DNA of 64,000 nucleotides from Candidatus Stammera capleta (GCA_036689535.1 CP144850.1:203956-267955), one strand, 5' to 3'. Counted from the stretch's first letter, positions 10,721 to 62,313 are shown. The notes: a model not told the origin generated them from the sequence alone. Translations and numbers: made by a program.

Positions 10721-11704
10721 TTAACCTAAAACTAAATCTATTTTTCGTTTAGCTATTATATTAGCTTGTTCTGCTCCAGACAATAATAAATCTAACAAAT
10801 ATTTTTTATGATTATAATAATATAAATATTTTTGTTGTATAGAAAATAGAAATTTATTTAAACGAAATGACAAATATTTTTTAAATTTACTATAAGTTTC
10901 ATATAAAAACCATTCTTCTCATTTAGAAATAGAAATATTACTTATACCAGATAAAATAGTTAACAAATTAGAAATACCTGGTTTATGTAATCTATCATAT
11001 ATAATTTTATGATCTCGATCAGAATCGGTAACTGCTTGTCTAATTTTATGAACAATTATTTTAGGACTATCTAATAATAATAAAAGATTATTTATATTTT
11101 TATCAGATTTCGACATTTTTTTTTGAGGATCTAATAATCCCATAATTTTACTACAATGTCTAGACAATAAATATTTAGGTTTTAAAAAAATATGTTTTTT
11201 ATATAAATTATGATATTTATCAACTAAATTTCTAGTAAATTCTAAATGTTGTATCTGATCTTTTCCAATAGGTACATAATACGTATTATACAATAATATA
11301 TCAGCTGCCATCAAAATAGGATAACTAAACAAACCTATATTACAAAAAGATCAATTTTTCTTAAGAAATAAAGATTTAAACTGAGTCATCCTTTTAAGTT
11401 CACCTATATACGATAAACAATTTAATACTCAATATAACTGAGTATGTGCTGGTACATGAGATTGTACAAAAATAACACATTTATTAGGATTAATACCTAT
11501 AGCTAATAATATAGATAATATACTATATATATAATCATGTAATAACTTTTTATTATGATATATAGTTAAAGCATGTAAATCAACAATACAATAATAACAG
11601 TGAAAATTATATTGTAATCTTAATCATTGTTTAAAAATACCTAAATAATGACCTATAGTTAATATACCAGTAGGTTGAATACCACTAAATACTATTTTAC
11701 ACAT
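10721..11704 (-). CDS. trpS: Tryptophanyl-tRNA synthetase
   Basis: MCKIVFSGIQPTGILTIGHYLG, YPILMAADILLY, KMSKSD. Single frame joined through TGA codons. Confidence 0.93.
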
Positions 11705-24383: not shown

Positions 24384-25715
24384 TTATAAAGATTGTATAA
24401 TACCATAAAGACAATTATAATATACATTTACTAATTTAACTGTTATAATACTCCCTAATAATTCTTTATAACCTGTTAAATAAATAATTTTATTATTATC
24501 TGCTCGTCCATACATAAAATTATTTTTTTTATTAATAAATCCTTCTACTAATACTTTTTGTAAACTACCTAATAACTTATTATTCCAATAATAAATATTT
24601 CTTTTAATTAATTTCTGTAATTTAAATAAACGATATTTCTTTTCTACTAACGAAACATTATCTTGCATATTACATGCTACAGTACCAGGTCTAGGAGAAT
24701 ATATAAACAAATAACTAGTATCAAATTTAATATCTAATGCTAACTTTAAAGTTAAAGCAAAATCATCTTTAGTTTCTCCTGGAAATCCTACTATAAAATC
24801 TGTACCAAATAACATATTAGGTCTAACTAATAATATCTTTCTTATAATTTCTTGATATAATTCTACTGTATAATTACGACACATTTTTTTTAAAATTATA
24901 TTAGAACCACTTTGCACTGGTAAATGTAAATAATTAACTAACTGTTGTATATCTTTATATGCCATAATTAATTCATCAGTAAAACAAATAGGATGACTAG
25001 TCGTAAATCTTAAACGAGTAACACCAGGTATTTCAGATATTTTATATAATAAATCTACAAAACTACATTTACGTCCATCTTTATAAAAACTAATATAAGA
25101 ATTAACATTCTGACCTAATAAATTAATATCTTGTATACCTGTACTAACCAAATACTTAATTTCTTTAATAATAATTTCTGGATTACGACTAACTTCTTTA
25201 CCACGAGTAAAAGGAACTATACAATAAGTACAATATTTGTTACATCCTTCTGTAATAGTAACATAAGAAAAAAACTTTTTCTGTAATAAAGTATTACCAT
25301 ATTTATAATCATTTTCTGGCACAAAATCAAAATTTATAATTTTTTTATGATTTAATCTAAATTGTGTAATAAAATGATGTATTTGACTAATATTTTTAGG
25401 TGTAAAAATAATATCTACTGCTTTACTACGTAAAAATATATTTTTTTTTTCTTGTACTGAGACACACCCTCCTACACAGACAATTACATTAGATTTTTTA
25501 TATTTATATTCTTGTATACGTCCTAATAAATGAAATAACTTTTCCTGAGCATTATGTCTAACTGAACACGTATTTAAAATAATTATATTAGCAATATCAT
25601 AAGAATCAACAAGAATATATTTTTCAAATTTATTTAAATAATAAACAATTTTATTGGAGTCATATTGATTCATTTGACATCCTCAAGTTTTGATATATAA
25701 ATAATTACTTTTCAT
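24384..25715 (-). CDS. miaB: tRNA-i6A37 methylthiotransferase MiaB
   Basis: MKSNYLYIKT-W-GCQMNQYDS, radical-SAM motif CNKYCTYC, HLPVQSGS, C-terminal TRAM domain. Confidence 0.94.
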
Positions 25716-42507: not shown

Positions 42508-43521
42508 ATGTTAATCTTAGCTATAGATACATCTTGTGATGAAACTGCAATTAGTATATATAATACTTTAACAAAAATATTTACTAATAAAATTTATAAT
42601 CAAATAAAAATACATGAAAAAACCGGTGGTATTATACCTCAGAAAGCTACATACTATCATTATATAAATATCATTCCTTTAATAAAAACATTACTCAATA
42701 AAAATAATTTATCTATAAAAAATATCCAATTAATTGCTTATACTGCTGGACCAGGTTTAGCTAATTCATTATTAATAGGAGCTACAACAGCAATTAGTTT
42801 ATCTTATTTGTATAAAATTCCTTACATAGCTATTAATCATCTAGAAGGACATATTTTATCAGTCATGTTAAATAAAAAAAAACCTAATTTCCCTTTTATT
42901 TCTTTATTAATATCTGGAGCTAATACATTATTAATTTTAGTAAAAAATTTTAATAAATATAAAATTTTAGGTAAATCTCTAGATGACTCTATTGGTGAAA
43001 TATTAGATAAAATTTCTTCTTTAATGAAATTAGGTTTACCTGGTGGTAAACAAATCTCACAAACTGCTAAATTAGGACAAAAATATTTTATTTTTCCTAA
43101 ACCTATGTATAATCAAAATAATCTTAATTTCAGTTTTTCTGGACTTAAAACACATATAACTAACTTATGATATAAACTAAAAAAAAAAATAAATATTAAT
43201 ACATTAAAACAAAATATTTCATATACTTTAGAAAGAACTATATACCAAATTTTAATCAAAAAAACTAAAAAAGCACTAAACCAATACAAAATCAAAACAT
43301 TATCTTTAGTAGGTGGAGTTAGTGCAAACAAAACATTACAAAAAAAAATATCAGCATGAACAAAAAGACATAACATACAATTATATACATTACCTACTAA
43401 ATGATGTACAGATAATGCGGATATGATAGCTTATACTAGTTGAATTATATTCAACAAAAAAAAGTTTATAAAAAATAATTGAGTTATTAAAACAAATCAT
43501 AAATTACCATTAAACACATAA
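42508..43521 (+). CDS. tsaD: tRNA t6A37 threonylcarbamoyltransferase TsaD
   Basis: ILAIDTSCDETAISIY, AYTAGPGL, INHLEGH, GGVSAN, CTDNADMIAY. Divergent from rpsU as in E. coli. Confidence 0.93.
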
Positions 43522-43533
43522 ATATTTTCGATA

Positions 43534-44730
43534 TTAACTAAATATTTTTTTCATAAATAATTCTAAAGATTTTATACGTAAATATCTCATGTGCTGAGCA
43601 ATATATTTACCTTGATATCCTAATTTAATTACATCATCACTTATAATTTGACATGTATTTTGATAAAAAATTAACAAATAATGATCTAAAATTTTTAATA
43701 ACATTTTATTTTTAAATGGAATAAAAAACATTACTTTCAAAAATAATAAAAATTTATTTAAGAAAAAAGAATGTCTTCACACATTCATAATATGAAATAT
43801 ATCCATAATTAATATAGTTATTTTTTGTTTCCTATCATAAAAATATATAAGATATAATATATTAATTATCACTTTATATAATATATAAAATTTCTTAGTA
43901 ATATTAAATCTTTTACAAAATAAATGAACTAATTTTAATAAATAATTTTTATTTAAAAAAAATTCATGTACTAAAAAAGTTTTATAAAAAAACAAACATA
44001 AAAAAACAAAACGTAAATCTAAAGTTAAATTCATACTAACAATAATTTTAAAAATTTTTTTAAAATAATGACATATATATGTAGAATCAAAAATATCAAT
44101 AAGTTCTGGAAAACTAATATTTAATGCTCCACATTTATATAAAATTAAAAAATAAAAACTAGGTGCAGTAGAATTAAGACCTTTTACTGTTTCTTTCCAA
44201 ATCCTTTCAGGTATTATATATAATAATTCACCAGAACGAACTATTCACATAAGTAATTTAAAAGTATTATCATCAATAACAAATTTTAAATTATAAAAAC
44301 GAGAATATAATTGAGCTACTCTAAAAATACGTAATGGATCATCTATAAAATTAAAAGATACATGTTTAATTAATCTATTATTTAAATCTTGTATACCATT
44401 ATAAGGATCATATATCTTACCATATAAATCTATAGCAATAGCATTAATAGTTAAATCTCTTCTAAATAAATCTTCTTCTAAGGTAACAGACACAGAACTA
44501 TCACAAATAAAACCACAATATCCTTTACCATTTTTAATTTCTGTACGTGCTAAAGCATACTCTTCATTAGTTTTAGGGTGTAAAAATACTGGAAAAGAAT
44601 TACCAACTTGTCTATAACCTAAAGATAACATCTCATTTATAGTAGACCCTACTACTAATCAATCTTTATCACGTACTTTTAATCCTAATAATTTATCTCT
44701 TACTGCTCCTCCTACTAAATAAATTTTCAT
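43534..44730 (-). CDS. cca: tRNA nucleotidyltransferase (CCA-adding enzyme)
   Basis: [59 protein letters not shown]. The C-terminal HD-domain region is degenerate (LCLFFYK where E. coli has LCHDLGK). Confidence 0.9.
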
Positions 44731-47164: not shown

Positions 47165-48427
47165 TTAAGATCTCTTCATCATTTCAAAAAAACTATCATT
47201 AGTTTTAGTCATAGATAATTTTTTTATTAAAAATTCCATAGCATCAATTTCATTCATAGGATTAATAATTCGTCGTAAAATTCACATTTTATGTAATTCT
47301 TCTACAGTAGTTAATAACTCTTCTTTACGAGTACCAGACTTATTATAATCAATAGCAGGAAAGATACGTTTTTCTGCTATTTTTCTAGACAGATGTAATT
47401 CCATATTACCAGTACCTTTAAATTCTTCATATATTACTTCATCCATTTTAGAACCAGTATCTACTAAAGCAGTAGCTATAATAGTTAAACTACCACCTTC
47501 TTCTATATTTCTTGCTGTACCAAAAAATCTTTTAGGTCTATGTAAAGCATTAGCATCTATACCTCCAGTTAATACTTTACCTGATGCTGGTACTACTGTA
47601 TTATATGCTCGAGCTAATCTCGTAATAGAATCTAATAAAATTATTACATCTTTTCTATGTTCTACTAATCTTTTAGCTTTCTCTATCACCATTTCTGCTA
47701 CTTGTACATGTCTTAAAGGTGGTTCATCAAAAGTAGAAAAAATTACTTCTCCTTTAACTGTACGATACATATCAGTAACCTCTTCAGGTCTTTCATCAAT
47801 CAATAAAATAATTAATACACAATCAGAATGATTATGACTAATACTTTTTGCAATACTTTGTAATAAAACAGTTTTACCTGCTTTAGGAGGAGCTACTATT
47901 AAACCTCTCTGTCCTTTACCAATAGGAGCAGCTAAATCCAATATTCTTGTAGTTAAATCCTCTATAGTACCATTACCTTTTTCCATATACAATCTACTGT
48001 TAGCATGTAAAGGAGTTAAATTTTCAAATAAAATTTTATTTTTATTATGACTAGTAGGTTTATCATAATTAATAGTATCTACTTTTAATAAAGCGAAATA
48101 TCTTTCTAAATCTTTAGGAGGTCTTATTTTACCAGTAATTGTATCTCCTGTACGTAACTTAAACCTTCTTATTTGACTAGGTGATACATATATATCATCA
48201 GGGCCAGCTAAATATGAACTATCAGAAGATCTTAAAAAACCAAAACCATCTTGTAATATTTCTAATACACCATAACCAAAAATATCTTCACCACCTTTAG
48301 AATGTTGTTTAAGAATAGAAAAAATAATATCCTGTTTACGCATTCTAGATAAATTTACCAAAGATATTTTTTCACCTAAAATGACTAACTCTGACACTGA
48401 CATACTTTTTAATTCAGTAAGATTCAT
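47165..48427 (-). CDS. rho: Transcription termination factor Rho
   Basis: About 85% identical by eye to E. coli Rho from MNLTELK to FFEMMKRS. One TGA at KM-W-ILR (47282-47284). Confidence 0.98.
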
Positions 48428-50876: not shown

Positions 50877-51072
50877 ATATATATCAACATTATATATAAA
50901 AAATAATTTTTAGTCTATAATATATAAGAATATATATTCATATTCATTAATAAAATTTTATATAAAATATTCTATATTTATATAATAAAAAATATTATTT
51001 TTAATATATATATTTAATATATATAAATATTAAAATAATAATAAATATTATTATTTAATTATAATAAAAATT

Positions 51073-52404
51073 ATGAATAACAAAATTATTATAAGTTTAA
51101 TTAAACTTATAAATAAACAAAAAAAATTTTTAATTGGTTTTAGTGGAGGTATTGATTCTACAGTTTTATTACATGCATTATATACAATTAATAAACAATA
51201 TTCTCAAATTTCTATAAGGGCTATTCACATTAATCATTATTTCAATAAAAATTCTACAAAAATAGCTGTTCATTGTAAAACAATATGTAATCAATGAAAA
51301 ATACATTTAATACAAGAACATATTAATTTATCATTTGATAGTAATAAAGAATCTCTATATCGTAAAAAAAGATATGATTTATACAAAAAATATTTACTAC
51401 CAAATGAAATTATTCTCACTGCACATCATCAAAATGATCAATGTGAAACATTATTACTTTCACTTAAAAGAGGTAGTGGCTTAAAAGGATTAGCAGGAAT
51501 ACATAAATATATTTTTATTAAAGATAAACTAATTATCGTTAGACCATTTTTATATATTCCTAAATATATAATAAATATGTATGCTATAAAAAACAAATTA
51601 AAATGAATAGAAGATATTAGTAATAATAATATTAATTTTGATAGGAATTTCCTACGTTGTTCAATTTTACCTCAAATTATTAACAAATGACCATCTTTTA
51701 TAAAAACAACTACTAGATGTAGTAAAATATGTTATCAACAAAATAAATTAATTACATTACTCATTGATAATCTTATACCCACTAACTATTTTAAAAAAAA
51801 AAAAATTTCTTTAATACCAATAATTAATTTACAAAAAGAAATACAAATTTATATACTAAAAAAATGAATAAATGAATATATTTCTATCAATATTAGTTAT
51901 AAATGAATACATATATTATGAAATAATATTTTTATGAAAAAAAAAATAAACAAATATTATAAAATATGTATAAATAAATATTTTATTATTTGATATAAAA
52001 ACTATTTATATCTTACTAAAAATATACAATGATATAAAGAAACTTCTTTCATATGAGATAAAAAAAAAACAAAATTTGTTTTACCTTATCAATTAGGTTT
52101 TTTAAAATGATATAAAAGCAATAATAATTTATATAATATTAGGAAACCTTATAAACATGAAATTATTTATGTTAAATTTAACATACAACAAAAAATAACA
52201 ATTTTAAACAAAAATATACAAAGAATTAAAAATATATGACAATCATATAATATAAAACCATGAAATAGAAAACTAACTCCTATAGTATATTATAATGAAC
52301 TACCTATAGTATGCCCGAATCTTTTTATTACTAAAGAAAGCCAAATATATAATTTTAAACTTAATTATACTATTAAATGATATAAAAATAATTTAATTAA
52401 TTAA
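51073..52404 (+). CDS. tilS: tRNA-Ile lysidine synthetase
   Basis: PP-loop FLIGFSGGIDSTVLLH, TAHHQNDQCETLLLSLKRGSG, W-IEDISN, NFLR. Many in-frame TGAs. TAA stop at 52402-52404. Confidence 0.9.
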
Positions 52405-54693: not shown

Positions 54694-54767
54694 AGGTCTA
54701 TAGCTCAGTCGGTAAGAGCACACCCCTGATAAGGGTGAGGTCAGCGGTTCAAATCCACTTAGACCTA
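54694..54767 (+). tRNA. tRNA-Ile(GAU)
   Basis: AGGTCTATAGCTCAG..CACCCCTGATAAGGGTGAGGTC.. is close to E. coli ileT. It is not flanked by rRNA genes here. Confidence 0.92.
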
Positions 54768-54780
54768 TATATAAAAATTT

Positions 54781-54853
54781 AGGGGTATAATTTAACTGAT
54801 AAAATAGTGGTCTCCAAAACCAAAAACTGAAGGTTCGACTCCTTCTACCCCTG
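54781..54853 (+). tRNA. tRNA-Trp(CCA)
   Basis: A canonical 73-nt cloverleaf. Acceptor AGGGGTA/TACCCCT with G73. D stem ATTT/AAAT. Anticodon arm GTGGT-CTCCAAA-ACCAA, with anticodon CCA at 54814-54816. T arm GAAGG-TTCGACT-CCTTC. Collinear with E. coli trpT. Confidence 0.9.
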
Positions 54854-54893
54854 TTAAATAACACTCCTCAAAAAATATATTAACATAATTCAT

Positions 54894-55127
54894 ATGAATA
54901 ACATATTCAAAAATATTAATATTTACGTTAAAAAATATATCAGCCCTATATTACAAATACACGGAGGAAATATAAAAATTATTAAAATAGACCCTCAAAA
55001 TACCTTATGAATACAATTGACAGGTCAATGCCTATCATGTAATATGTCATGACATACCATAAAATATGAAATTAAACAAAAAATAACATCTAATTTTCCA
55101 CAAATTAAACATATAAAACATATATAA
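54894..55127 (+). CDS. nfuA: Stand-alone Nfu-type Fe-S cluster carrier domain (77 aa), equivalent to the C-terminal half of NfuA
   Basis: ISPILQIHGGNIKII..LTGQCLSCNMS-W-HTIKYEIKQKI..FPQIK matches NfuA [38 protein letters not shown]..FPEL. An in-frame TAA 13 codons upstream of the ATG precludes an N-terminal domain. Confidence 0.7.
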
Positions 55128-55129
55128 AT

Positions 55130-55678
55130 TTATTTACGTGAAATATAATGATCATTTCAAGTATTTATTTTAATTAAATCCCCTAACTTAACAAATAAAG
55201 GTACTCATATATAATATCCTGACACCAATTGTGCTAATTGTTGTTTTTTATGAATAATTTTATTACTTAATTTAATTACTTTTATATAAATATAATGATC
55301 TATAATTAATTCTATAGGTCGATTGTTTCATAATACAATCTGATATTCATAATCTTTAACTAAAAATTTATATTTATTATTAATCACTATTTTATTTAAA
55401 ATAATTAAATCTAAAGTTTTTTTATGTAAAAAATATCAGTTCAGTCCCGTATGATATAAAAATATATATTTATCTCGAATAACATTCGCTATTTGTAAAG
55501 AATTAAAATTTTTAAAATTTTTTACCACTAAACTAGTAGTTAATATATTACGTAATTTAATCCGTACAAAAGATTGTCCTTTACCTGGATTAATAAAATT
55601 AAAAGATTCTATATTATATAAATTATTTAAATAAACTATTTTCAAATTAATTTGAATATTATTCTTACTAAGCAACAT
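55130..55678 (-). CDS. efp: Elongation factor P
   Basis: FINPGKGQSFVRIKLRNILT (Lys34 loop), VL-W-NNRPI, VPLFVKLGDLIKINT. Confidence 0.9.

Positions 55679-60918: not shown

Positions 60919-62313
<1,395 letters not shown>

Follow-up and report, generated by a model that had tools for sequence, protein, structure and literature searches.

How can one tRNA-Trp whose anticodon is CCA serve a genome in which UGA is the main tryptophan codon? This question is raised by a stretch of 64,000 nucleotides (64 kb, hereafter the window) from Candidatus Stammera capleta, a bacterium that digests pectin as a symbiont of tortoise leaf beetles. The window represents ~23% of a Stammera genome of ~274 kb, and the HIT protein encoded beside its tRNA-Trp gene matches one from a 274,464-bp NCBI record at 100% identity. 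The use of CCA in UGA-rich genomes is a current question, and one answer, an anticodon stem reduced to four base pairs (4 bp), reached bacteria only in 2025-2026. This answer left the mechanism of Stammera unexplained, since Stammera capleta appears as a 5-bp-stem case in its entry of a recent survey (PMC13092985). The retention of CCA and the absence of a UCA anticodon in code-4 Stammera are already published, as are the phenomenon in general and its candidate mechanisms, and this general picture is unchanged. What appears to be new, judging from the sequences, is a Stammera subclade whose tRNA-Trp(CCA), probably its sole Trp tRNA, has a 4-bp stem, like those of Zinderia and XS4, combined with A24.

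UGA is indeed the majority tryptophan codon of the window, as the original prediction had claimed. Long non-overlapping open reading frames (ORFs) contain 170 TGA and 22 TGG codons (~88% of tryptophan codons being TGA), and lowering the ORF length cut-off gives 177 and 25, respectively; with a minimum length of 100 codons, stop-to-stop ORFs amount to 67 kb when read in code 4 and to 44 kb when read in code 11. Alignment with standard-code relatives agrees with this, as TGA of the window stands opposite TGG in 38/55, 44/63, and 34/55 cases (62-70%) at three standard-code Stammera loci, each compared through nine orthologous gene pairs. With ~88% of tryptophan codons being UGA, efficient decoding of this codon is needed. 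An A following UGA is described as favouring read-through in E. coli (PMC10540940); in the window, A is not enriched after UGA (34% vs 43% for all codons).

The tRNA-Trp gene and the positions relevant to its decoding are the following, together with the neighbouring tRNA gene:

54694-54767 (+), tRNA-Ile(GAU), 13 nt upstream of tRNA-Trp on the same strand (ARAGORN)
54781-54853 (+), tRNA-Trp, anticodon CCA, 73 nt without an encoded 3' CCA (ARAGORN; Rfam RF00005, 62.2 bits, full-length)
54790-54793 (+), 5' strand of the D stem, A10 U11 U12 U13 (ATTT; sequence and cloverleaf)
54799 (+), A19 replacing the conserved G19 (alignment; the 12 other tRNAs of the window have G18-G19)
54802-54805 (+), 3' strand of the D stem, A22 A23 A24 U25 (AAAT; sequence and cloverleaf)
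54807 (+), G27, unpaired top of the anticodon stem, 5' side (Rfam alignment and cloverleaf count)
54814-54816 (+), anticodon C34 C35 A36 in the 7-nt loop CUCCAAA (sequence)
54823 (+), A43, opposite G27 (Rfam alignment and cloverleaf count)
54839 (+), C59 in the T loop (alignment)

The Rfam model bounds the gene at 54781-54853, and the ARAGORN call (54780-54854) is one base longer at each end. The gene sequence is AGGGGTA TA ATTT AACTGATA AAAT A GTGGT CTCCAAA ACCAA AAACT GAAGG TTCGACT CCTTC TACCCCT G. ARAGORN identified 13 tRNA genes in the window, none of the window tRNA genes encoding the 3' CCA, and this is the single Trp tRNA found within the 64 kb by ARAGORN and the Rfam tRNA model. As reference we used E. 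coli trpT, whose sequence is annotated as tRNA-Trp in every one of 5426 complete E. coli genomes; the alignment to it contains no gaps and the D loop has 8 nt in both genes, so the tRNA numbering can be transferred to the window gene. On this basis the D-stem pairs are A10-U25, U11-A24, U12-A23, and U13-A22, with A24 at 54804, and position 9 is A (54789), the A9C change being absent. The gene and anticodon coordinates, D-stem pairs, position-24 numbering, and D-loop length of the original prediction are thus all reproduced, as is its claim that the family-box tRNAs of the window carry U34, seen by ARAGORN in 6/6 (Ser-UGA, Leu-UAG, Pro-UGG, Gly-UCC, Thr-UGU, and Ala-UGC). Only its figure of ~15% GC needs revision, the window being 19.5% GC.

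Several traits set this tRNA apart from the others of the window. An all-A-U D stem is found only in tRNA-Trp among the 13, and the pair U11-A24 occurs in two of them, Trp and Gly(UCC), the other 11 having C11-G24. The tRNA-Trp of other Stammera lineages retain G18-G19, where the window gene has A19. Loss of G19 should abolish the G19-C56 pair that joins the D and T loops at the elbow.

Comparison with relatives was based on six Stammera loci, namely the window, L001 (CP144822), and four loci reached through homologues of the HIT protein (L009, L012, L013, and L015). Codon counts in these last four cover called genes only:

L009 (CP144787), TGA/TGG 0/52, TGA as stop in 1 gene, standard code; 27:43 U-A, 30:40 G-C, 11:24 U-A
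L012 (CP144777), TGA/TGG 0/63, TGA as stop in 2 genes, standard code; 27:43 U-A, 30:40 G-C, 11:24 U-A
L013 (CP144774), TGA/TGG 0/51, TGA as stop in 1 gene, standard code; 27:43 U-A, 30:40 G-C, 11:24 U-A
L015 (CP144853), TGA/TGG 55/1, TGA as stop in none, code 4; 27:43 U-A, 30:40 G.U, 11:24 U-A
Window and L001 (CP144822), TGA 88-89% of Trp codons in long ORFs, code 4; 27:43 G.A, 30:40 G-C, 11:24 U-A

Other HIT homologues (P0006, P0008, P0009, P0010, P0013, and P0016) belong to other Enterobacterales, with a different gene order and no tRNA-Trp nearby, and were discarded. Apparent in-frame TGA codons in the standard-code locus L012 were due to spurious antisense ORFs, and the counts were redone with real genes only. 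Both genetic codes therefore occur inside one named species, three loci being standard and three having TGA at 88-98% of tryptophan codons. This split matches the basal standard-code clade of the gTranslate preprint, which describes five basal Stammera genomes with the standard code and a retained prfB.

The tRNA-Trp of L001 (CP144822.1) is 100% identical to the window gene. The proteins of the two genomes have diverged: ValS is 78% identical, with the flanking gene and tRNA order shared, and mean orthologue identity is 82.6%. The order tRNA-Ile(GAU) then tRNA-Trp(CCA) is kept in 6/6 Stammera loci, and the two genes are probably co-transcribed. The anticodon CCA is unchanged in E. coli and in 6/6 Stammera loci. 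Identity between the tRNA-Trp of the window and those of the other lineages is 59-63 of 75 positions, compared with 66-71 of 74-75 for the Ile, His, and Lys tRNAs, so that tRNA-Trp belongs to the more rapidly changing end of the shared set. At position 59, E. coli has G, the three standard-code Stammera loci A, and the three code-4 loci C.

The original prediction drew attention to U11-A24, the pair produced in the Hirsh suppressor of E. coli (trpT G24A). The likeness is genuine, as in both cases CCA is unchanged and U11-A24 stands in place of U11.G24. Apart from this change the Hirsh tRNA is described as wild type: its anticodon stem is G-C-rich and has 5 bp, positions 19 and 59 are both G, and against RF2 it suppresses weakly. 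A24 is a mutation in that tRNA, whereas in Stammera it is common to standard-code lineages. A cloverleaf count found U11-A24 in the tRNA-Trp gene of each of the six Stammera loci, including L009, L012, and L013; the pair is thus ancestral in Stammera and untied to recoding, and its presence under the standard code means that it cannot by itself cause recoding. A24 is consequently not a derived change limited to UGA-reading lineages, and the comparison of code-4 with standard-code relatives proposed in the original prediction does not separate the codes at this pair. Of the Hirsh-type decoding suggested there, the pair itself and the role of the CCA tRNA as the most likely UGA decoder stand, but not the specificity of the pair for recoding; the accompanying caveat that A24 might reflect AT drift was well placed, as G24->A runs along the AT bias and the pair is found in standard-code lineages too. 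At best, U11-A24 is a permissive pre-adaptation, and A24 alone should not be taken as a sign of suppression. Across bacteria, A9C and/or G24A are present in 2,414 of 3,438 4-bp-stem tRNA-Trp(CCA) genes (PMC13092985). The proposal that tRNA-Trp mutations away from the anticodon, of the Hirsh or Schultz-Yarus type, precede recoding in symbionts is not new; such distal changes could let CCA decode UGA ahead of an anticodon change or in its absence (PMC2704378; PMC10540940).

A feature that was overlooked in the original prediction is located at the top of the anticodon stem. In the Rfam alignment, positions 27:43 of the window tRNA-Trp form G.A and are marked as a non-standard pair, leaving an anticodon stem of 4 bp (28-31 with 39-42). 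Position 27 is G in the window and L001, U in the other Stammera lineages, and C in E. coli. When six distinct tRNA-Trp sequences including that of E. coli were placed on a fixed cloverleaf, standard pairs occupied 125 of the 126 stem-pair cells, and the only unpaired cell was 27:43 in the sequence of the window and L001. Compensatory double changes were observed at 10 stem pairs, which, together with the 125 standard cells, indicates that the stems of tRNA-Trp are under purifying selection. The same G27.A43 is found in two genomes that share only ~83% protein identity. The 4-bp stem is derived within the subclade of the window through U27->G, a change that, like the code-4-specific A59->C, runs against the AT bias (19.5% GC in the window).

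The unpaired 27:43 is not confined to tRNA-Trp. It is also observed in tRNA-Ser(UGA) (A27.C43; 579-661, +) and tRNA-Gln(UUG) (U27.C43; 25897-25967, -), so that 3 of the 13 window tRNAs have 4-bp anticodon stems; among bacterial genomes, 85.6% have 4-bp stems (PMC13092985). The nearest-neighbour energy of the isolated anticodon arm hardly differs between the window arm (-2.1 kcal/mol) and that of standard-code Stammera (-2.2 kcal/mol), which suggests that the 4-bp stem, if it matters, acts through hinge geometry and not through bulk stability. According to the mutational experiments related in PMC13092985, C27A, which unpairs 27:43, gave ~2.5-fold more UGA read-through in E. coli. In published work, changes at the hinge of E. 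coli tRNA-Trp ease the distorted A/T state and hence the acceptance of a mismatch. The unpaired 27:43 is the tRNA-Trp feature with the strongest published experimental backing, and its effect would extend to Stammera by extrapolation.

The association of stem and code in Stammera rests on very few independent lineages: a weakened anticodon stem is found in both code-4 lineages (G27.A43 or G30.U40) and in none of the three standard-code ones. In L015, where UGA represents 55 of the 56 tryptophan codons, tRNA-Trp(CCA) keeps five anticodon-stem pairs, of which only G30.U40 is a wobble. A 4-bp stem is thus not required for code 4 in Stammera.

Taken together, it is rather probable that a single CCA tRNA reads UGA through a tolerated C34.A mismatch, helped by a loosened tRNA body and by reduced competition from RF2. 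The sole tRNA-Trp(CCA) would then read both UGG and UGA, the latter with the mismatch at the third codon position, and this near-cognate reading would be enabled by changes in the tRNA body and not in the anticodon. The unpaired G27.A43 would provide a 4-bp stem, a solution of the Blastocrithidia, Zinderia, or XS4 type, superimposed on the ancestral U11-A24 pair within an all-A-U D stem, and A19 and C59 may contribute further. Positions 27:43, 11:24, 19, and 59 all lie at or near the hinge between the D arm and the anticodon stem or at the elbow between the D loop and T loop, and these body features probably raise UGA decoding. The loss or weakening of RF2 competition would complete the capture of UGA.

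A more tentative extension, possible though on the doubtful side, is that Stammera represents a stepwise natural series of code change driven by the tRNA body and not by the anticodon. Ancestral U11-A24, still present in standard-code lineages, would first have made UGA leaky; after UGA capture, the code-4 lineages would have loosened their stems independently (G27.A43 in the window, G30.U40 in CP144853), and the code-4 clade would additionally have gained C59. If this were true, the window tRNA would be a natural counterpart of an in-vitro-selected triple mutant at positions 24, 27, and 59, and the genus would offer ready variants for measuring the contribution of each position.

Tryptophan decoding in the window can be related to other retained genes involved in tRNA charging and maturation:

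10721-11704 (-), trpS, tryptophan--tRNA ligase, which charges tRNA-Trp (NCBIfam TIGR00233, 294 bits vs a cut-off of 177)
24384-25715 (-), miaB, methylthiotransferase making ms2i6A37 (NCBIfam TIGR01574, 458 bits vs a cut-off of 355)
42508-43521 (+), tsaD, retained (NCBIfam)
43534-44730 (-), CCA-adding enzyme, retained (NCBIfam)
51034-52404 (+), tilS, C34-modifying enzyme, 2.4 kb from tRNA-Trp (NCBIfam)

The tRNA-Trp of the window has A36-A37-A38, the same as E. coli trpT, and from these bases it is probably a substrate of MiaB. The conservation of miaB, tsaD, the CCA-adding enzyme, and tilS in a genome of ~274 kb indicates that A37 and C34 modification, as well as 3'-end repair, are apparently still under selection.

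Other explanations for the decoding of UGA would assign no role to the tRNA body. One is that another part of the genome contains a tRNA-Trp(UCA) gene, decoding UGA and leaving the CCA gene as an ordinary UGG reader, an option contemplated in the original prediction. The part scanned directly here is ~23% of the ~274 kb genome, and among 70 code-4 genomes in which tRNA-Trp(CCA) has a 4-bp stem, 65 also carry a UCA tRNA (PMC13092985), which would favour such a gene. However, no tRNA-Trp(UCA) was found in the 64 kb window by ARAGORN or the Rfam tRNA model, nor in the six Stammera loci (~170 kb in total), and published tabulations agree: Table 2 of PMC13462651 gives tRNA-Trp(CCA) as present and tRNA-Trp(UCA) as absent in 49 Stammera genomes, Table 2 of PMC10540940 has no tRNA-Trp(UCA) for the Stammera genomes it includes, and the gTranslate preprint describes code-4 Stammera as 'always' without it. 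With none in the ~49 published genomes, a hidden UCA gene is scarcely conceivable. An alteration of C34 after transcription, by C-to-U editing or a lysidine-like modification that allows pairing with A, is very unlikely, although less so. C34 is kept in every Stammera lineage compared despite the dominance of UGA, C-to-U editing of tRNA-Trp for UGA is known from kinetoplastid (trypanosomatid) mitochondria, as treated in PMC8677022, and the TilS gene is retained 2.4 kb away. Against this, tilS is equally beside tRNA-Trp in standard-code lineages. In E. coli tRNA-Ile2, TilS recognises C4-G69 and C5-G68, and the window tRNA-Trp has G4-C69 and G5-C68 instead. No candidate tRNA cytidine deaminase was seen in the window (~23% of the genome), where 9 ORFs were compared with NCBIfam and the others judged by eye from their first 70 residues, and we know of no bacterial case in which C34 is edited or modified for UGA-Trp. 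C34 is moreover an identity element for TrpRS, which may be the sole reason for its retention.

The explanation that competes most directly with relaxed decoding by a loosened tRNA body is that no dedicated tRNA adaptation exists: with RF2 lost or weakened, UGA would be read slowly but unopposed by any tRNA-Trp(CCA), and the body changes would be drift, with G27.A43, A24, A19, and C59 neutral or slightly harmful in a decaying genome. RF2 competition has been reported as lost or weakened in most code-4 Stammera, with prfB listed in 15 of the 49 genomes of PMC13462651 (Table 2), and in E. coli the wild-type tRNA-Trp itself shows some UGA reading, of low efficiency (PMC12213064). No release-factor GGQ motif was detected within the window (~23% of the genome), and RF2 may be absent from this genome. 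In addition, L015 uses code 4 despite a stem of five pairs, A24 is older than recoding, both G24->A and G19->A follow the AT bias, the window tRNAs Ser-UGA and Gln-UUG are equally unpaired at 27:43, and tRNA-Trp is among the fastest-evolving shared tRNAs; the commonness of 4-bp stems across bacteria and the small difference in arm energy are likewise consistent with G27.A43 being a product of decay. Pure decay fits less well with the remainder of the molecule, since all other stem pairs of tRNA-Trp are maintained with 10 compensatory double changes and selection on its pairing is thus active. U27->G and A59->C oppose the mutational bias, the anticodon stem is weakened in both code-4 lineages and in none of the three standard-code loci, and ~88% UGA among tryptophan codons needs efficient decoding. 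We therefore consider the loss of RF2 competition as a sufficient cause unlikely, and retain it as a contributor to UGA capture by a tRNA with a loosened body.

Relaxed decoding by a tRNA-Trp(CCA) whose anticodon stem is short has parallels in other organisms. One was described in Blastocrithidia (2023), whose tRNA shares with the window an unpaired top pair of the anticodon stem and a retained CCA; as outlined in PMC13092985, the 4-bp stem has been shown experimentally to raise CCA decoding of UGA in Blastocrithidia and Condylostoma. The tRNAs concerned are cytosolic and eukaryotic, and they act alongside a mutant eRF1. Two bacteria, XS4 and Zinderia, were subsequently suggested to use the mechanism (PMC12213064; PMC13092985). 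Zinderia is also an insect symbiont with a tiny, AT-rich, code-4 genome and a sole Trp tRNA with the anticodon CCA, and it shares with the window an unpaired 27:43 at the top of the stem, a 7-nt loop, and no tRNA-Trp(UCA), the latter established for the window over its 64 kb (PMC13092985). It differs in having A27.C43 and C11-G24, without the Hirsh pair, where the window has G27.A43 and U11-A24. Stammera is in addition a separate, gammaproteobacterial symbiont lineage, and Zinderia has no known standard-code sister lineage. Such a relative is available for XS4 (Fastidiosibacteraceae), a code-4 bacterium with only a 4-bp-stem tRNA-Trp(CCA), whose standard-code relative RS3 has a 5-bp stem (Nakayama et al. 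2025, PMC12213064). XS4 and RS3 parallel the window and L009/L012/L013, although XS4 retains the RF2 gene (PMC12213064), and the correlation of stem and code in Stammera, unlike that of XS4 and RS3, is not one-to-one because the code-4 locus L015 keeps five pairs.

The window tRNA-Trp agrees with the 'Blastocrithidia-like' class in its CCA anticodon, 4-bp stem, 7-nt loop, and absence of A9C. This class is defined without G24A (PMC13092985), and the presence of A24 places the window tRNA in the class set aside there (4-bp stem with G24A) and not among its strict members; by analogy, we propose that it may nevertheless work in the same way. The combination of changes is also reminiscent of the UGA-reading mutant C27A+G24A+G59A obtained by in-vitro selection (Ortiz-Meoz & Green 2010), in which, as recounted in PMC13092985, C27A was essential. 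The window differs from E. coli at the same three positions with other bases at two of them, G27.A43 and C59 in place of A27.G43 and A59, and the likeness may serve as a lead and not as a test. Among symbionts, Providencia siddallii PSAC resembles the window in having in-frame UGA-Trp codons and trnW(CCA), with off-anticodon mutations proposed to allow an A-C mismatch. As portrayed in PMC10540940, PSAC represents an early stage, with UGA in 20% of genes and prfB present, compared with the late stage of the window at ~88% UGA.

Three states of the anticodon stem are thus found in one genus, a 5-bp Watson-Crick stem under the standard code, five pairs with a G.U under code 4, and a 4-bp stem under code 4, and all three share the Hirsh pair. 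Stammera therefore offers a natural series from the standard code to code 4, in which relaxed decoding could be reduced to a few swappable point differences at positions 27, 40, 10, 19, and 59.

Some additional observations concern the surroundings of the tRNA genes. Between efp and tRNA-Trp, the Stammera genomes of larger size (312-326 kb) encode a histidine kinase and a response regulator (L009 7629-9658, L012 7659-9676, L013 7647-9673, and L015 7773-9582); the corresponding segment of the window (54854-55130) has neither, which represents a lineage-specific gene loss. A tRNA-Leu(CAA) gene adjoins the Ala-Thr-Tyr-Gly tRNA cluster in L012 (2248-2330, -) and L013 (2076-2158, -), and no such gene occurs at that position in L001, L009, L015, or the window. 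Long antisense ORFs opposite tilS (51240-51731, -) and rho (47349-48065, +) are uninterrupted when read in code 4 and similar enough between genomes to produce BLAST matches; they are artefacts of AT-rich composition that can inflate TGA counts if they are not removed. ATP synthase genes are present in the window, with AtpD at 60919-62304 (-); together with the match to Stammera, they led to the rejection of Zinderia, Nasuia, and Vidania as the origin of the sequence. The exact AtpD sequence has no database record, unlike the HIT protein of the same genome, most likely because the deposited gene call uses another start codon. Immediately downstream of tRNA-Trp, an ORF of 77 residues (54858-55124, +) contains two UGA codons and resembles NfuA in its C-terminal Nfu domain alone (NCBIfam, E = 1e-10, covering 106-177 of the 190 profile positions), and in L015 a 79-residue NifU-domain gene occupies its place.
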